Shown here: positions 2,955 through 50,780 of the stretch, in pieces | Position numbering within the stretch: the first letter of the stretch is position 1 | How the letters are laid out: every line of letters begins with the position of its first letter | Assembly (NCBI GenBank): GCA_964016885.1 | Contig: OZ024742.1 | Coordinates: 94,240,001 to 94,304,000 of the forward strand | Source: Eledone cirrhosa | Lineage: Eukaryota | Direction: 5' to 3' | Length of the DNA stretch: 64,000 nt | The notes under the pieces: generated by a model | What the model saw: only the letters and a program-made list of their open reading frames with translations | Told to the model about the DNA's origin: nothing | Databases searched by the model: none | Program-made: the position numbers and the translations under genes

Positions 2955-3465
2955 ATTCTGATTTAGGCACAAGGCCAGCAATTTTGGAGGAGGAGGAAAT
3001 TGAATAAATCAACTCCAATGCATGACTGGTACTTTATTTAACAACCCCATAAAGATTAAAAGCAAAGCTAACCTCAGTGGGATTTGAACTCAGAATGTAA
3101 AGGGCCATAACTCTATGCCGCTAAGCATATTCGCTGATGCTCTAGCGATTTTGCCAATTGGATTATAGGCACAAGGCTAACAATTTTGAACTCAGAATGT
3201 AAAGGGCCTAACTCTATGCCGTTAAGCATGTTGGCCAATGCTCTAGCGATTCTGCAATTTGGATTATAGGCACAAGGCTAACAATTTTTGGGGGAAGGGG
3301 AATGTCGATTAAATCGACCCAAGTGCATTACTGGTATATTATTTTATCCACCCGATAAGGATGAAAGGCAAAGTGAAATTTGGACTCAGAACGTAAAGGG
3401 ACGTAACTCTATGCCACAAAGCATGTTTTCTGATGCTCTACCAATTCTGGCAATCCACCATCCTA
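2955..3465 (-). mobile_element. Cluster of three partial tRNA-derived SINE copies (family A)
   Basis: Repeated AGGCACAAGGC...TTTGAACTCAGAA segments. The minus strand has a B-box (GAGTTCAAATCC) and a central TTTGCCTTTCATCC...GGGGTCGAT block. Confidence 0.75.
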
Positions 3466-3672
3466 ACATCAGCAAGAGCAGTAATAATAACAATAACTAC
3501 AGTAGCAGAAACAACAATATAACATCAATCATAATAACAAATATAATAAATGTGAGTGTTGATTGAAAAGTTCGTAGGATGACTATGAATGAGTAATGAT
3601 AGAGCTGTGATATCTTGCCTACATTAATTTCAAATCTCCTTATTAATAACTGCATTGTTTCTTTCCAGGGAC

Positions 3673-4010
3673 TTTGGAGGCCCCATTTGATCATAAATGA
3701 CCATGATTTTGCACCTAGAAAGTTTCCCTCTGAGGCACAATCCTGGGCAAGGTTTGTTTTGTGGAAGACTAGCAGTCACCCATGCATACCAGCCTCCCCT
3801 CTACACACCACCAATGTTGTCTAAGGGAAAGGCAATGATCGATACAGCTTGGCAGCAGTGACGTTGCAACTCATTTCTACAGCGGAGTAAACTGGAGCAA
3901 CATGTGAAATAAAGTGTCTCAAGGACACAATGCATCATCCAGTCCGAGAATCAAACTCACAACCTCTCAATTGCAAGCCCGATGCTCTAAACACTAAGCC
4001 ATGTGCCTTC
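3673..4010 (-). mobile_element. tRNA-derived SINE (family B)
   Basis: Minus strand reads GGCACATGGCTTAGTG (A-box), GAGTTTGATTCTC (B-box), then TGTGTCCTTGAG...ACACTTTATTTCAC. Homologous to 22545-22840. Confidence 0.8.
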
Positions 4011-4974
4011 ACAGGGACTATTTTCTAAAATAAACCTCATTTGGTTATTCCATGTGAGTAACTTTATCAGTCTATAAACGTTTCAGCCAACACTCATATG
4101 ACAACTGAAACACAGGCTGTAAACAGTCATAAACACAACTAAAACAGCAGCAGAAACTACAACTGCACAGCAAACACTGTCCTTGAGGAGCTAGTAATGG
4201 TATGCTTGGGATTGCATAATCTGCTTGAAAGAACAGCTAAATCTTCCTTTAAAACAAGGATACATTGGGTACTTAGTTCCAGGTAAATTATCTGAAGAAA
4301 AGGTAGGGTGGTCACCATTAGAATGACTTTAAATATAAACCTACTAAATTAGGGATGGTTGGTGTGCTTAGCAACTAAGCCAGCTCCTCCACCAGACCCT
4401 TGTCTAGTGAGGAGGTTAAGTGGAACCCCAGCAACACAATAAACAAGAGCTGTTAAAAGGACAGATTAACTCCTCAGAGTCAATGGCTATCAACCCCAAC
4501 TATGGTTTAAATAGCCTCCTCAACCTGCAATTGGCTAAGCTTGGGGAAGATAGCTACACCTCTGTCATGGCAAAAACCAGACAGAAAGAGGTGAAGGTCA
4601 ACCAGGGAGGGGTTCCTCCAACCAGAGTGAGAAGTCCCTCGATTGGATTGGAAATTAGAAATGAACTGTGTATACATAACAATAGTAGTAGTAGCAGCAA
4701 AAATAACAGCAGCAGTATCAGCAACAATAACTATTACTACTACAATAATAACAACAACAATAACAGCAATAACAGCAACAACCATAACAGCAACAAAATC
4801 AACAATAGCAAAAGCCATAATAACAACAGACTCTCCCCCACTCCAGCTATCACATGTCAGATGTATACATAATTGTTATTGTCAAGTTACAGCAGACATT
4901 AACAGCACCAAAGGCTGCAGCATTGCAAATTAAAACAACAACAACAGCAACAACAACAAAAATAATAATAATGA

Positions 4975-5188
4975 TTTCTACTATAGGTACAAGGCCAGTA
5001 ATTTTTGGGAGAGGAAAGTTGATTAAATCGACCCCAGTGTGTGACTGGTACTTTATTTTATCGATCCCATAAGGATAAAAGGCAAAGTTAACCTCAGCGA
5101 GATTTTAACTCAGATCATAAAGGGCTGCAACACTATGCTGCAAAGCATGACGTCCAACCCTCTACTAATACTGCCAACCCTCCGCCCT
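4975..5188 (-). mobile_element. tRNA-derived SINE (family A)
   Basis: TGGCAGTATTAG A-box, GAGTTAAAATC B-box, central TTGCCTTTTATCCTTATGGGATCGATAAAATAAAGTACCAG block and ATT tail. Confidence 0.8.
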
Positions 5189-5435: not shown

Positions 5436-7978
5436 ATACATGCCCCATGGATAGACAGACAAATGAAAGATACAGCTCACCTTGAGGAACAAATATGGGA
5501 AAATATAACAGTTGAATAGTTGCGTTTGGCTCTAAGAAAAACCAGCAAATGGAAATCCCCTGGAAAAGACAAAATACAAAATTTTTGGATAAATGCCTTC
5601 ACAGAGTCTCGTGAGCTGTTAGCCCAACTTTACAATGAAATAGTTAAGGAGCCAGAAAAGATACCATCATGGCTAGTTAACGGCATTACATTCCTGCTTC
5701 CGAAGAATGATGAGACAAACAATCCCAAAAATTACAGACCGATAACTTTCTTGACCACAATGTATAAAATTTTAACATCAGTCCTAACTGAATATACATA
5801 TGACCACCTGATAACAAATTACCTATTTCCCATTGAGCAGAAAGGGTGTAAACGAGGCTCATATGGCTGTAAGGATCAGCTTTTGGTTAACAAAATGATA
5901 CTGGAAGATTGTCATAATAGACACAAAAATCTATCAATTGCTTGGATAGATTATAAAAAAGCATTCGATAGTTTGCCACACAGTTGGATTGAAAAATGTT
6001 TAGAGATTTTCAAAATATCTCCCGTTGTCAGGAGGTTTTTGTCATTCAGTATGAAGACATGGAAAACGACACTCCTTTTGAATAGTGAAACAAAATCACT
6101 GGAAGCTGGAGAAGTTAATATTAATTGTGGAATTTTTCAGGGTGACTCTTTATCACCGCTTTTATTCTGCATCGCACTTATACCATTAAGTAGAATGCTC
6201 AATGAAAAAAAACATGGATATAAAGTCTATGACAAAACCATTAATCACTTGTTCTACATGGATGACCTGAAACTATTCGCAAAAAATGATGAACAATTGC
6301 AAGGGCTATTATCCACTGTGGAGCAGTTCAGTGATGACATTAAAATGGAGTTTGGACTAGATAAATGCGCCAAAGCAACGTTCACCAGAGGAAAGCTGCT
6401 GAAAAGTTCAGACATTAGTCTTGATCGGGGGAATGTGATAAGAGAACTTGATCAAGAGGAAACTTACAAATATCTAGGTCTTTGTGAAGTAGACGGAATC
6501 AAGCACTCGACAATGAGGGAAAGGATAAGGAAGGAATGTTACCACAGAGTAAGAGCAATCTTAAGAATGGAATTGAATGCAAGGAATAGGATCAATGCCA
6601 TAAACTCGCTTGCCATACCAGTAGTAACCTACAGTTACAATGTCATCAACTGGTCAAGCACAGTGATCCGTAGGCTCGATACAAAAATTCGAAAATTCTT
6701 AACCATGCACAGAATGCATCACCCTAAGGCAGATACAGATAGAATATATCTCTCTAGGAAAGAAGGAGGACGTGGGTTAATCCAGTTAGACATTGCGTTG
6801 AAAACTGCAACAATTGGATTATCTACATATCTAAGGGAATCACATGATTGGATGATCAAACTCGTTTTGAAACACGAAAGCATCAAAAGATCATACTCCA
6901 TTACAAAAGATGCACAAAGATACAGTAATGGACTACAAATTTCAGAAGTCCCATTTACTGCTGAAATGGAAAACACAGAAAAAGCAAAGCAGGTAAAAGT
7001 AACTGCAAAGAAAGAACCGCTACAGAAACTGGCGAAGAAATGGCAAGAAAAGCCTCTGTATGGAAAATACCCAGAAGGAGCTAACAATCCTGATGTTGAC
7101 AAAACTTTAACCCATCAGTGGTTGGCATCCTCTGGACTGAAATCGGAGACTGAAGGACTGATTATATCAGCACAAGATCAGTGTCTGCCAACAAAAAATT
7201 ACCAAGCCAACATAATAAAAAATGGATGCAGCCCATTATGTCGTGTATGTAAAAAACAACCAGCGACCATTGACCATATAATTTCAATGTGCAGTCCTAT
7301 AGCTCCAACCGAATACCTAAACAGGCATGACAGAGCTGCACAATACATACATTGGATAATGTGTAAGCATTTTGACCTGCCCCATCAAAAGAATTGGTGG
7401 GAGCATCAACCACCTCCCATACCTGAAAAAGATCACATCTCAATCTTGTGGAACTTTAGCATCCAAACAGACCGAAAAATAGATGCAAGTAGACCTGATA
7501 TAATATTGAAGGACTTTAAAAAGAGGGTATGCCTGCTAATTGATATGTCCGTTCCAATAGACAAGAATGTATCTATAAAAACATTTGAAAAATTGAGCAA
7601 GTATAAGGACCTGGAGATAGAAATTGGAAAAATGCGGACATTTAGAACTAAAACAATACCAGTGATTGTAGGCGCTCTAGGAATGATACCTAAGGCGTCT
7701 AATGATTACTTATCGCTAATCTCAGGAAACCCGCGTATAGGAGAAATACAAAAGATAGTACTAATTGGAACCTGCCCATATACTAAGGAAGATTATGTCA
7801 ATATAAGTACATCACAAGTCTAAACACCTAAAGATGCATGTGTGAGTATGCATGTTCTTTCTTGAACATGGTGGACCTTGTTGTCTCTTGAGGTCACTGG
7901 TTGTGACTTGGTGATAACTCGTATGAACACAAAGCAAGATAAATGCAGCTGTAATAATAATAATAATAATAATAATAA
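5436..7978 (+). mobile_element. 5'-truncated Dong/R4-clade non-LTR retrotransposon
   Basis: RT followed by a CCHC knuckle and a REL endonuclease; 3' UTR ends in a (TAA)n tail; the 5' junction lies in (TAA)n. Confidence 0.9.
5520..7823 (+). pseudogene. Reverse transcriptase / restriction-like endonuclease ORF (Dong/R4)
   Basis: Motifs NYRPIT, WIDYKKAFDS, GIFQGDSLSPLLF, YMDD, CRVC...HIISMC, RHD, RPDII..D and KLSKYKDL. An in-frame TAG lies at 5517-5519 upstream and there is a probable frameshift near the C-terminus. Confidence 0.9.
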
Positions 7979-13904: not shown

Positions 13905-15770
13905 AGGTGTCAGATACATGTCTTTTGATAAGAATGGGATGATAGTAAAAAAAGTAAAGAAGGTGGAGCAATCATCATCATGGACAAAAACCACTACAAG
14001 GATATGGTCCTAGAACAGTTGAATAACGAGGATTTTTACAGAAAAATCAGTAAAGACGAATAAAGAGAATCGAAGATTAAAGTAGGCAATCTGACGACGA
14101 AGTACCAAAACAACCTCACACTAAAGGAAATCAATTACTTAACCAACTTCGAAATGAAAACCAGCAATTTCTATGGTTTACCGAAGGGTCACAAATCCAG
14201 AGAAATCTAAAACCACACAAAAGGCAAAAATACATCATATGTTGAAGTACCAAAACCGACAGATTTAAAATTACGCCTAATTGTTGCTGGTCCAGCCTCA
14301 AGCACACAACGTCTAAGCAACCTACTGAAACCCTTACGTAAAAAAGTGACAAGCTTCATCAGAGATGATATGTAATTCCTGAACTATATCTCCCAGAAAG
14401 TACACCTAGAAATAATCTTAGTCAGCTTTGACGTAACAAGCTTATATACTAACATCTCACAAGACTTAGGAGTTGAAGCTGTTGACTTCTGGATTACAAA
14501 ACATCCAGACTACATTTCAGTGAGATTCCCCACAAAAAATATTTTGGAAGGACTCAAATTTCCTTTTTGATAATCAACTATATTTACAAATAAAAGGACC
14601 AGGCATGGGCACCAAAGTGGCCCCAACATATTCAACACTCGTTATGGGCCACCTAGAAGCAAAATTACATTCCAAACTGCAGGAAACATTCAGTCATGAC
14701 TTAGCCACCTACATTAATCACAACTGGAAAGGTTAATTATACGACTACTTCATCTTCTGGAATAGACGCCAATAATTCCATTCCATCATAAACAATCTTC
14801 ACGAAGAAATAAAATTCACCATGGAATGTAATAAAAAGGAACTATCGTTTCTGGATATCCTTATCATTAAGGAAGGGGAAAATATCAAAACGGACTTATT
14901 TTACAAACCAACAGACACACAACAATACTTGAATTTTCGTTCATCACACCCATCACATACCAAAAGGAACATTCCTTTTAACATGGCTAGACGCATCTGC
15001 ACCATAGTGACATACCCCACACTACAGGAAAAAAGATTATATGAATTAAAAGAGTTCCTTAAGAGACAAGAATATGCGGTGAACCTCATCAACACAACCA
15101 TCTCCAAAGCCCAGAACATCCCAGTGTCAACACTGAGAAAAACAAAGCAACAAAATAGAATGGAAAAAACAGTTGTCCTTTTTGTCATCACTAACAATCC
15201 AAGTAACTTCAACATTGTGAAAGCCGCCAAACAATATTTCCCGATTCTCCAGCAGTCCTCTAAAATGTATGCACTCATAAAAGACGCGCAAATTATATAT
15301 AATAAACGTCAAGCACCCAACCTAAAGAAACTGCTTACCAAGGCAAAATTTACGTCTAATAATGAAGCAATGCAAGTTAAGAAATGCGGGCACCCTCGAT
15401 GCGGAACTTGCGAACACATTGAAGAGGGTGAATAAATCTCCTTTAAAAACAACCAGTCTTTCACAGTTAATGCAAACATGAATTGCAAAACCAAAAACTT
15501 CATTTACTGTGCAACCTGCCCACAATGTAAAGAATACTATATTGGTGAAACCGGAACGGGTCTACATGACAGAGTTCGAGTACATAAACAACAAATTAGA
15601 GACCCCTCTGTCAGAAACACCACATGCAATGAACACTTCGCAACATGCGGAAAGGGAAATTTCACAATTTTCCCCTTCTTATATGGTCGGACAACGAACA
15701 TTTCCGAAAATATAAAAAGAATTCTTTATTAGAAAATACAAACCACTACTGAACACAAAAAGTGATACTC
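13905..15770 (+). pseudogene. Penelope-like element RT plus GIY-YIG endonuclease (disrupted)
   Basis: GGAIIIMDK, FYGLPK, VSFDVTSLYTNI, GMGTKVAP, FLDILI, YKPTDTQQYLNFRSSHP, CGHPRCGTC linker and IYCATCPQCKEYYIGETG. Confidence 0.9.
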
Positions 15771-17786: not shown

Positions 17787-17789
17787 TAT

Positions 17790-18032
17790 AACCGTCTATG
17801 CATTTCAGGCTTAACTGGCCTTCGTCAGGACGGTCCCTCCCACCGCTTGCGACTGCTGGACTAGAAGACAGCTGAGAATATATACTTTTCTCGTCTGTGT
17901 AAATGAGGTGATTAATCTCATTTGCATATGAAGCTGCATAGCTACGACTTCCTAAAACTGTATTTCTTTGGAGATAGGAAATATTTATACATATTGTATA
18001 AAGCTATGCTTGAAGCGAAATCCTATTTCTTT

Positions 18033-18040
<8 letters not shown>
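17790..18040 (-). repeat. Left arm of the outer inverted repeat (partner 19525-19778)
   Basis: About 250-bp reverse complement of the partner; about 3 substitutions seen by eye. Confidence 0.95.
17791..17834 (-). ncRNA. Minimal type I hammerhead ribozyme
   Basis: Reverse complement of 19733-19776. Confidence 0.88.
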
Positions 18041-18107
<67 letters not shown>

Positions 18108-18329
18108 ACACACACACACATATAAATATATATATATATAGATAATTTAATATATCTACTAACATAAGCGCACAGATGTACGCTAATGCCAGCAAATACA
18201 CAGGTTATGTCATAGTACCTAGGTGGTTCAATGCAGGACAATGCAGAACAATAATATATAAGACGTAAAATAAGAAAATTTCTTTAAAAAAATTTTTTTT
18301 TAAAATTAACTTACTTATTTGAATTTTCA

Positions 18330-18409
18330 CTCCAACTAATTAGTTTCTGCAATGGGATAAAGACAGTTACGTAATGAACTGTTGAGAATTTCATTGCGTC
18401 ATCAGGGAG
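18330..18409 (-). ncRNA. Type I hammerhead ribozyme (intact core)
   Basis: CTCC CTGATGA cGCAATG...CATTGCa GAAAC TAATTA GTT GGAG; palindromic stem III and GUU cleavage triplet. Confidence 0.8.
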
Positions 18410-18955
18410 GTAATTCTCAGCCGAGTCTCCAGGCGATGCGCGGACACTGGGGACTCATATAAAAATAATAATAATTCAGCAACTGGAACAGCTATCGAGG
18501 ACTGGATTCCAGCCACTGAAAATTCTCACTGCCACTGATCATATGGCCGATTCTAAAGAATCAATCACGTGACACAGAGGCTAGTCAGTAGGAATGGGAT
18601 GGTAAGATGACAGACGCCTACTAACACCCCCCCAAAAAAAATTTAGAAGTGGTTTTGGCAGGTTTGCTCGACAAATCAGTGATTTGTCGAGCAAACCTGC
18701 CAAAACCACTTCTAAATTTTTTTTTTTGGGGGGGGGGGTGTTAGTAGGCGTCTGTCATCTTACCATCCCATTCCTACTGACTAGCCTCTGTGTCACGTGA
18801 TTGATTCTTTAGAATCGGCCATATGATCAGTGGCAGTGAGAATTTTCAGTGGTTGGAATCCAGTCCTCGATAGCTGTTCCAGTTGCTGAATTATTATTAT
18901 TTTTATATGAGTCCCCAGTGTCCGCGCATCGCCTGGAGACTCGGCTGAGAATTAC

Positions 18956-19035
18956 CTCCATGATGACGCAATGAAATTCTCAACAGTTCATTACGTAACT
19001 GTCTTTATCCCATTGCAGAAACTAATTAGTTGGAG
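18956..19035 (+). ncRNA. Hammerhead copy with C3>A core substitution
   Basis: Mirror of 18330-18409 but reads ATGATGA. Confidence 0.7.
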
Positions 19036-19103
19036 TGAAAATTTAAGTAAGTAAGTTAATTTTAAAAAAAAAATTTTTTTAAAGAAATTTTCTTATTTTA
19101 CGT

Positions 19104-19522
<419 letters not shown>

Positions 19523-19524
19523 TA

Positions 19525-19870
19525 TATATATATAAAAGAAATAGGATTTCGCTTCAAGCATAGCTTTATACAATATGTATAAATATTTCCTATCTCCAAA
19601 GAAATACAGTTTTAGGAAGCCGTAGCTATGCAGCTTCATATGCAAATTAGATTAATCACCTCATTTACACAGACGAGAAAAGTATATATTCTCAGCTGTT
19701 TTCTAGTCCAGCAGTCGCAAGCGGTGGGAGGGACCGTCCTGACGAAGGCCAGTTAAGCCTGAAATGCATAGACGGTTAGCCGCCTTGCTTCTGCTGGACA
19801 TCACCAGAGGGCGTTAGACCCCCCCACCCCCTCCCGGTGTTTGCATAGCTACGGCTGAAGGGTTTTTCAA
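19525..19870 (+). mobile_element. Short non-coding hammerhead-bearing retroelement end (PLE pseudo-LTR or retrozyme-like)
   Basis: Bounded by (TA)n, no ORF, contains an intact hammerhead and long-range complementary flanks. Confidence 0.65.
19733..19776 (+). ncRNA. Minimal type I hammerhead ribozyme
   Basis: ACCGTC CTGACGA AGGC cagttaa GCCT GAAA TGCA TA GACGGT: 6-bp stem I, full core, 4-bp stem II, palindromic ATGCAT stem III, AUA cleavage after 19770. Confidence 0.9.
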
Positions 19871-49689: not shown

Positions 49690-50780
49690 AGAGCAGCAAG
49701 AAGCTGACTATACATCCTGTACCCTGCAGAACCTTCCACAGAAGGTACAGAAGAATGTGGTTATATGCCTTTTCAAGGTTGACAAACCAAGAATATACCT
49801 CTTGGCAAACTCCCACGATTTCTCGAAGATCTGCAGCACTGTGAATATTTGGTCGGTTGTGCTGTATCTGGGGCAAAAACGACACTGTTCATCAGCTAGC
49901 CTGGACTCAACAATCTCCCTGCATATCTTTGCCAGATACTTAGCACAGATTTTACTGAGGAGGCTTAACAAGGAAATCCCTTTGCAATTGGATATAATCT
50001 TTCTTGTCTCGCTTTTTGAAATTGGTTTAATCAGTCGTGATTGCCATTGCTTCGGTGCCTTTTCAGAAATCCAGACTTTTAACATTTTGGGCTGGATTTT
50101 ATCTTCCCTAGAGGCGTTGCCACATTTGAGCTCTTTAACTGCTCTTCTGATCTAAGCTTCTCAGAGATTAGTCACTGCTCACTGCTGCACATTGTGTACA
50201 TCAGAAGATGCTGTTGTGATCAGGTTTTAGAGATCAGCAAAGTATTCTCCCATCTCATGATGATCCACCTCCCTGAAGAGAGGAGAACCCCAGACACGTT
50301 CTTGATAGCAGGGGTAGAGGAGGACTTTTTATTACAAAGTCGGCAGATGGTCTGCCAGAAAACTTTATTTGCTGATCTGAAGTTGGATTCCAGCTTAAAC
50401 ACAAAGTACTCCCACATCATAACTTTGGGCAACATTACTGTCTCTGCTGCAATTCTTTGTACCTGCTTGTACCTCAAGTGCAAGAAGGAGGACTTATTTC
50501 CAAGCCAAGCTTTGTAGACCTCCTTCTTTGCTCGGATGGCATCTTTGATCCCTTGATTGAACCAAAGGGTCCTCCTATCATTGGGTGCCACACCAGGCCA
50601 CTTTCACCCACAGTATTTAACAGCTGAAGCAGAAACTGCTAAGCTGTACAATCTCAACTCTTTCTCAACGTTCTCAATTTACTCAAGGAGTTCTCTGAAT
50701 TTGGATAAAATAGTATCTGCTTAACTGGTCCTGACTACCTTATCCACCAATGCTTCCCACTTTATCCTGTAGGTCACCCT
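49690..50780 (-). pseudogene. RTE (Rex3/Expander-like) RT N-terminal remnant
   Basis: TLWFNQGIKDAIRAKK, NCKGISLLS, DEQCRF, STTDQIF and FVNLEKAY. Confidence 0.85.

Follow-up and report, generated by a model that had tools for sequence, protein, structure and literature searches.

A truncated hammerhead repeat in the genome of Eledone cirrhosa is likely a non-LTR retrozyme inserted by Penelope-like enzymes

The window analysed here, a stretch of 64,000 nucleotides from the 3.0-Gb genome of Eledone cirrhosa, is AT-rich and contains many microsatellites and broken retrotransposon frames. Within it lies one copy of a 324-bp tandemly joined repeat without protein coding (Table 1). The copy comprises two arms joined head to head, of which the inverted arm runs out into a TA microsatellite near 19522, and it stands without a tandem neighbour on its strand. 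The flagged copy represents an ordinary, decayed insertion that is probably unable to act as a source. A local inverted duplicate lies nearby and holds a second hammerhead core (17798-17828) together with the same arm junction. Since this rare junction is included, the duplicate was made after or during the insertion, possibly by fold-back priming at the TA run. The two copies (17789-18040 and 19527-19778) each face a microsatellite.

Several neighbouring repeats can be recognised. Positions 18254-19112 form an 860-bp fold-back, 97% self-complementary, which belongs to another repeat family found in several other loci; its minus strand shows half of a hammerhead-like core near 18391-18410, and it may be another Penelope-type palindromic insertion. 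Another high-copy repeat with very deep read cover occupies 19224-19520 and has a CTGATGA half core near 19453, and one more loose match to the hammerhead pattern is found at 49955-49981. A broken Penelope-like element (RT end, cysteine linker and GIY-YIG) spans 13950-15760, and its repeat is unrelated in sequence to the unit described here. Elsewhere in the genome this element has relatives whose 796-aa frames are intact. An open frame of 767 aa with a reverse transcriptase domain (Pfam RVT_1) is located at 5520-7823.

Table 1. Features of the repeat copy and its local duplicate, in window positions
Feature	Position	Strand	Basis or remark
Sense arm, unit positions 20-238, truncated at both ends	19627..19856	+	arm alignment
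Inverted 5'-truncated arm, unit positions ~224-324 including the 'tail'	19534..19632	-	arm alignment
6-bp microhomology joining both arms head to head	19627..19632	.	junction exact once in genome
'Closing helix' 5' side: end of inverted arm, not a family feature	19618..19632	+	junction counts
'Closing helix' 3' side: final 15 nt of truncated sense arm	19842..19856	+	arm alignment
Candidate promoter 11-mer, match to upstream motif of host U6, U6atac and RNase MRP genes	19640..19650	+	promoter function inferred
TATA-like box, 43 nt after the 11-mer; also an RNA hairpin loop	19683..19690	+	host comparison
Extended stem I: distal 9-bp helix and GCAAG/CTTGC	19706..19799	+	covariation, folding
Canonical-form type I hammerhead	19732..19777	+	sequence; 254 exact 44-nt copies; covariation
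Hammerhead stem I	19732-19738/19771-19777	+	sequence
Hammerhead core CTGACGA	19739-19745	+	sequence
Hammerhead stem II, 4 bp, 7-nt loop	19746-19749/19757-19760	+	sequence
Hammerhead GAAA	19761-19764	+	sequence
One-pair helix III with palindromic loop ATGCAT (19764-19769), predicted cut after A19770	19764..19770	+	folding, subfamily comparison
Expanded, interrupted C tract including CCCTCCC (19829-19835)	19821..19836	+	in the family, 3' strand of a small hairpin
Second copy, local inverted duplicate of 19527-19778	17789..18040	-	98.8% over 252 bp (3 differences)

The repeat family is large. The 44-nt ribozyme has 254 exact copies in the genome and the upstream 26-mer, which represents the normal flank and junction, has 869, while a search of the genomic DNA yielded 1890 candidates, of which 40 were scored and gave at least 130 matches. 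Two subfamilies were distinguished, with consensuses ~85% identical. The young unit measures ~324 bp (GC 0.44, longest ATG frame 56 aa) and the older one 343 bp (GC 0.39, longest ATG frame 44 aa), and in both the end of the unit joins its start. All arm counts given below refer to 93 loci kept of 101 (eight duplicate loci were dropped), which yielded 162 arms; 40 of the 93 had been chosen by the upstream 26-mer, that is, without regard to the ribozyme. Tandem copies, which the original prediction had proposed to look for elsewhere, were found: the unit junction is spanned by 85 of the 162 arms, and 65 contain more than one unit, the longest being 639 nt. Two complete hammerheads are present in only 7/162 arms, none of the arms examined exceeds two units, and no long arrays were seen among the loci examined. 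The unit thus combines the attributes used for non-LTR retrozymes, namely a non-coding unit within 150-450 bp, GC below 50%, a type I hammerhead and tandem organisation. Contigs of four other organisms match parts of the unit at 85-95% and are too fragmentary for covariation or a partner search. Directly after the tandem junction, at unit positions 3-23 (e.g. L009:1484-1504), there is a perfect 9-bp hairpin, which does not vary between the subfamilies and seems to occur in a related organism too.

By its form the ribozyme motif is a canonical metazoan type I hammerhead, for which cleavage is predicted. The elements named in the original prediction (the helix strands, GGGAGGG at 19726-19732, CCCTCCC at 19829-19835, the core, GAAA, ATGCAT and A19770) were all found in place, and CUGANGA, GAAA and NUH (H not G) are kept in both subfamily consensuses, position H17 being A19770 in the window copy and C in the older subfamily. 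Helix I has 6-7 bp and is extended, helix II has 4 bp and helix III a single pair with a palindromic tetraloop. This compares with 6 bp, 4 bp and 1-2 bp with a 2-4-nt palindromic loop in the canonical metazoan form, according to the text available of PMC4209133. The same source describes the minimal hammerhead of Penelope-like elements (PLEs) in schistosome families as having a helix II of 7-8 bp, a helix I of 4-5 bp and an extra base before helix II. The 4-bp helix II, the 6-7-bp helix I and the lack of an extra base rule out this minimal form (min-HHR), and the label 'minimal' initially given to the motif was therefore wrong. Rfam returned no hammerhead match: nothing passed the gathering score, and relaxing E to 10 brought up seven weak matches, all unrelated. 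Loop 2, which would take part in a tertiary contact with loop 1, keeps six of its seven bases while three of the four stem II pairs swap between the subfamilies, and the first stem II pair, typically G-C in such motifs, is A-U in the young subfamily, or U-U in 15/101 copies.

How the repeat spreads is indicated by the geometry of its insertions. Two arms lie head to head in 62 of the 93 loci (26/40 among those chosen independently of the ribozyme), and 128 of the 162 arms terminate at one of two 3' end sites, ~35-40 bp apart, such that the stretch between them forms a 'tail' on one arm only. Among the 62 pairs, 38 have one site each, one has the far site twice, none has the near site twice and 23 include a truncated arm. 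A dinucleotide microsatellite adjoins 105 of the 128 ends. The older subfamily behaves likewise, with 19/46 loci head to head and two end clusters. Diagnostic bases are shared within a locus far over expectation (28/30, 15/19, 18/21, 22/23 and 28/29, where 0.49, 0.34, 0.54, 0.73 and 0.76 were expected), as would be the case if both arms arose in a single insertion event. The marks described for Penelope-like elements are a partial tandem, an inverted 5' copy and a one-sided tail of 30-40 bp (PMC8557442, PMC3846280, as far as their text was available), and the accessible part of PMC11167929 reports that the reverse transcriptase has two internal start sites which are reflected in the tail. Compared with these descriptions, the genomic copies match the Penelope-type pattern of an inverted 5'-truncated copy, one-sided tail, partial tandem and microsatellite target.

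The cut site is crossed by 139/162 arms, and only 3/162 have a 5' end within 5 nt of it, so that a clustering of arm 5' ends at the cut was looked for and not found. Since the arms run through the cut site, the template would have been uncut or re-joined RNA, two states that DNA cannot distinguish, and these figures give no direct sign of cleavage. A lizard Penelope enzyme is reported to prefer unprocessed RNA (PMC11167929, in the part available). Four young 5' ends at position 99 were not used, as they may represent an alignment effect of the inverted stem.

We therefore consider it likely that the window copy is a truncated, decaying member of a 324-bp non-coding repeat, a non-LTR retrozyme put into microsatellites by a Penelope-like reverse transcriptase/endonuclease. 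The original prediction of a retrozyme-like identity, a conserved extended stem I and dimer dependence is thus retained, whereas its ~240-nt domain, its pseudoknot and the 'minimal' label are not (see below). The closest competing explanation sees in the copies the terminal repeats (pLTRs), solo or in partial tandem, of an autonomous Penelope-like element that escaped the sample in its full-length form. Such elements leave the same pattern of tail, inversion and microsatellite target, most of their insertions are 5'-truncated, the frog retrozymes and pLTRs are related according to the part available of 10.64898/2026.07.22.740005, and our sample covers ~140 of well over a thousand places. However, the unit end joins straight to its start in 85/162 arms, and likewise in the older subfamily, no frame leads into the unit at any of the 40 loci chosen independently of the ribozyme, and the hammerhead is canonical in form, not minimal. 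We consequently regard terminal repeats of an autonomous element as unlikely.

Penelope-like elements with intact 796-aa frames do exist in this genome. At the nucleotide level the unit resembles neither the 30 loci with Penelope-like frames nor the five longer ones that were compared with it, and a reverse transcriptase plus GIY-YIG frame between terminal repeats was not found at the loci examined. At locus L223 (about 3070-5005) an older unit cut near position 270 continues, on the same strand, into a Penelope-like element that is 5'-truncated, and the rest of the unit is absent on the far side of that element. A template-jump chimera is possible for this single case, which fits an insertion with deletion as well. 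That no Penelope partner was found could also speak for spread by other machinery, such as a LINE or fold-back duplication at the DNA level, the Penelope-like geometry then being coincidental; LINE-type reverse transcriptase frames are abundant within the window, and an inverted duplication at the DNA level did happen at this very locus (17789-18040). Against this stand the two fixed internal 3' ends on opposite arms (38/62 pairs), which the text available of PMC11167929 describes as peculiar to Penelope-like elements, and the arm lengths and junctions, which vary freely, unlike fixed terminal inverted repeats. Other machinery is for these reasons very improbable, and we continue with a retrozyme mobilised by a Penelope-like enzyme.

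Outside the hammerhead itself, stem I is extended by two further helices that had been noticed in the window copy and that prove to be family features. In the distal one, GTCCAGCAG (19706-19714) pairs with CTGCTGGAC (19791-19799). The core, stems I and II and the GCAAG, GGGA/TCCC and GTCCAGCAG helices are common to the whole family, with GGGA pairing with TCCC inside stem I in both subfamilies. The window copy has lost GGGA/TCCC through three substitutions (19778, 19779 and 19782), and the same substitutions created CGG/CCG. The latter helix, initially taken as part of stem I, is thus present in the window copy and private to it, and ~99% of the depth in run X1, which represents other copies, reads otherwise at these positions.

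Covariation was scored on an alignment (A2) that took in 25 of the 51 young copies and 25 of the 33 old ones, leaving out the downstream small hairpin, whose columns align poorly. The 30 named pairs were paired in 92.2% of 1493 cells compared with 33-45% when the partners were slid. Two-sided change was found in 92 cells, compared with 33.7 in shuffles (0/500 as high), and the number of pairs showing such change, six, was not above shuffles (301/500 as high). Between the two consensuses, the swapped pairs are three of the four in stem II, one in stem I and one in the distal helix, and one further change keeps a G-U pair. The chance of eleven changes landing as five pairs is ~2e-5 under random placement, or ~1e-4 when the CpG-type distal pair, which could stem from CpG decay, is omitted. 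Since there was one split between two subfamilies and not many independent events, this covariation is good but not repeated evidence. On the basis of these alignments, the two subfamilies keep the fold by compensatory change. Covariation had been put forward as a check on the flanking helices, and it favoured the extended stem I (five compensatory pairs) and failed to favour the pseudoknot.

The original prediction had placed the hammerhead in a ~240-nt domain closed by a perfect 15-bp helix and possibly locked by a pseudoknot. Its features are beyond chance as a whole: 19618-19632 and 19842-19856 are perfect complements, a 15-mer inverted match occurs in only 17/5000 shuffles (a count that includes self-overlapping palindromes), and folding of the 256-nt stretch gives -96.6 kcal/mol (z = -4.86, 0/200 shuffles as good). 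Nevertheless, the 15-bp helix, CGG/CCG and CCCTCCC are private to the window copy. The two arms overlap by 15 unit positions and this overlap is the 15-bp helix, its length being set by the truncation, and across the 62 head-to-head pairs the overlap ranges from 0 to 324 nt. The window copy's arm junction has one exact match in the genome plus one with a mismatch in the local duplicate, compared with 869 for the normal flank, and no contig piece bridging this junction was present among the matches listed. As judged from the copies compared, the helix is a by-product of insertion and truncation, and the real unit of 324 nt continues past 19856. The proposed GGGAGGG/CCCTCCC pseudoknot is paired in 53% of cells compared with 46-71% for slid versions, its central A-U pair is found in 1/50 rows, CCCTCCC lies in a variable C tract and occurs in 6/110 copies, and the older subfamily reads GGGAGAG and is without the C tract. 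The pseudoknot could form in the window copy alone; in the family the GGGA is paired within stem I. Hence, although in the window copy alone the 15-bp helix is predicted at a probability of 0.86-1.0, the 7-bp duplex taken by itself would contribute -13.6 kcal/mol and the G-rich strand is released by the changes at 19778-19782, a functional 240-nt RNA domain is scarcely credible and is already largely refuted by the junction, overlap and pairing counts across copies.

The suggestion that cleavage depends on a dimer, in comparison, gained support from folding predictions. The A15.1-U16.1 pair of helix III has a predicted probability of 0.00 in the monomer, and the cofold optimum of two motifs is a double hammerhead (-30.9 compared with -27.2 kcal/mol for two monomers), favoured by 3.7 kcal/mol with or without the extended stem. 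A dimer model has been described for such motifs in PMC4209133 and PMC6765202, as far as their text was available, and the predicted cleavage mainly as a dimer, which agrees with it, is likely. Among predicted frog retrozymes, 8/9 gave no cleavage in vitro according to the part available of 10.64898/2026.07.22.740005.

Unit positions 1-98 contain the 11-mer ATGCAAATGAG and, 43 nt further on, a TATA-like box, which together resemble a host U6-type (type 3 Pol III) promoter. This part of the unit is more conserved between the subfamilies (94%, 92/98) than the rest (80%, 181/225; Fisher p = 0.0015); both motifs sit in predicted RNA hairpins, which may account for the conservation. The host U6-type promoter (L182-L185, L216, L221) appears to combine an octamer-like 11-mer, located around -77, with TATA at -30. 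This arrangement, with the motif at -76 to -78, was found for U6 (three distinct promoters), RNase MRP and U6atac, the 11-mer of RNase MRP being identical to that of the unit and that of U6atac having one mismatch. The spacing is 43 nt in both subfamilies compared with 46-48 in host genes, i.e. 3-5 nt short. The 11-mer is absent from U2 genes and from the RNase P match, and also from nine further U6 and four further U6atac matches that look like retrocopies. Host U2 genes have a different upstream block, yet a TATA-like run near -32. Tandem arrays were noted for the U6 gene (~1.8-kb spacing, G000:C19:31780605-31840331) and the U2 gene (~2.2-kb spacing, G000:C3:307349256-307453739). The pair of 11-mer and TATA occurred in 0/200000 shuffles of the unit and was absent from a 297-kb control, the pattern having been defined after seeing the data. 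A T run of at least five is present at the unit junction in 37/46 young copies, where Pol III read-through would be expected to stop, which argues against the promoter reading. We treat the 11-mer and TATA box as a candidate promoter only, with about even chances that it works.

A cycle can be proposed in which partial-tandem copies would be transcribed, possibly from the unit's own U6-type motif and TATA box. The ribozyme would then cleave behind A19770, mainly where the palindrome lets two motifs pair, and the monomers set free could be closed into circles. For a Penelope-type enzyme, two internal sites (unit ~283-289 and 322-324) may each serve as the starting point of reverse transcription, which would pass over the cut site and extend across as much as two units, either on a circle or on multimer RNA left uncut, with the second, inverted arm built in the same event. 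In its complete form, with a host U6-type promoter in a circularly permuted unit, a dimer-gated hammerhead giving rise to circles and Penelope copying from two sites, the model is tentative and rather doubtful.

Retrozymes, dimeric hammerheads and the Penelope insertion geometry are already known individually, and Penelope-like elements have been proposed as movers of animal retrozymes (PMC7229834) and linked to them by co-occurrence (10.64898/2026.07.22.740005), both as stated in the text available. The squid genome paper only counts hammerhead matches (235). In the literature we found neither this retrozyme family described nor a U6-type promoter reported for any retrozyme, though the supplements of PMC7229834 or 10.64898/2026.07.22.740005 may list it. 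This is likely a new retrozyme family, mobilised by Penelope-like enzymes, and what it adds are insertion scars that tie a canonical-hammerhead retrozyme to these enzymes, together with a candidate U6-type promoter. Since the Penelope tail and inversion are found on a protein-free unit with a canonical hammerhead, the link between retrozymes and Penelope-like elements becomes testable with a short RNA. If the promoter, circle and Penelope reading is true, the insertions would be direct genomic evidence for the partnership and the 324-nt unit a minimal substrate for Penelope retrotransposition.

The comparisons that follow are with the available text of the papers cited. The family resembles the metazoan non-LTR retrozymes of PMC7229834 (axolotl HHR_Amex1 and the 350-390-bp mussel units) in its unit size of 324/343 bp, GC below 50%, lack of coding, canonical type I hammerhead, highly self-paired unit and head-to-tail junction, and axolotl HHR_Amex1 shares the one-pair helix III with a palindromic tetraloop. 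It differs from them in its dispersed insertions of one to two units, inverted arms and one-sided tail, in the lack of long arrays in the loci seen and in being known here from DNA; the word 'inverted' is absent from the available main text of PMC7229834. With the terminal repeats of Penelope (PMC8557442, PMC3846280, PMC4209133, PMC11167929) it shares partial tandems, a head-to-head inverted 5'-truncated copy, a 30-40-bp tail at one end, AT-rich or microsatellite targets, a type I hammerhead with palindromic helix III and insertions running through the cut site. Unlike those repeats, it has no reading frame, its hammerhead is canonical rather than minimal, and it resembles none of the examined Penelope-like loci of the host in sequence. 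Newt satellite 2 and schistosome Sm-alpha (PMC2220036, PMC6765202) are also hammerhead repeats with a promoter, here a candidate, inside the unit, and likewise need a tandem neighbour for whole transcription. The newt promoter is of the snRNA-type Pol II class and the schistosome one Pol III, whereas the match here is to the U6/U6atac/RNase MRP motif and not to U2. For frog retrozymes the same dependence on Penelope-like elements has been proposed (Li, Clavereau and Pollet 2026, 10.64898/2026.07.22.740005). That study builds its case on co-occurrence and on sequence trees, for the most part in vertebrates, whereas the argument presented here is drawn from the geometry of the insertions.
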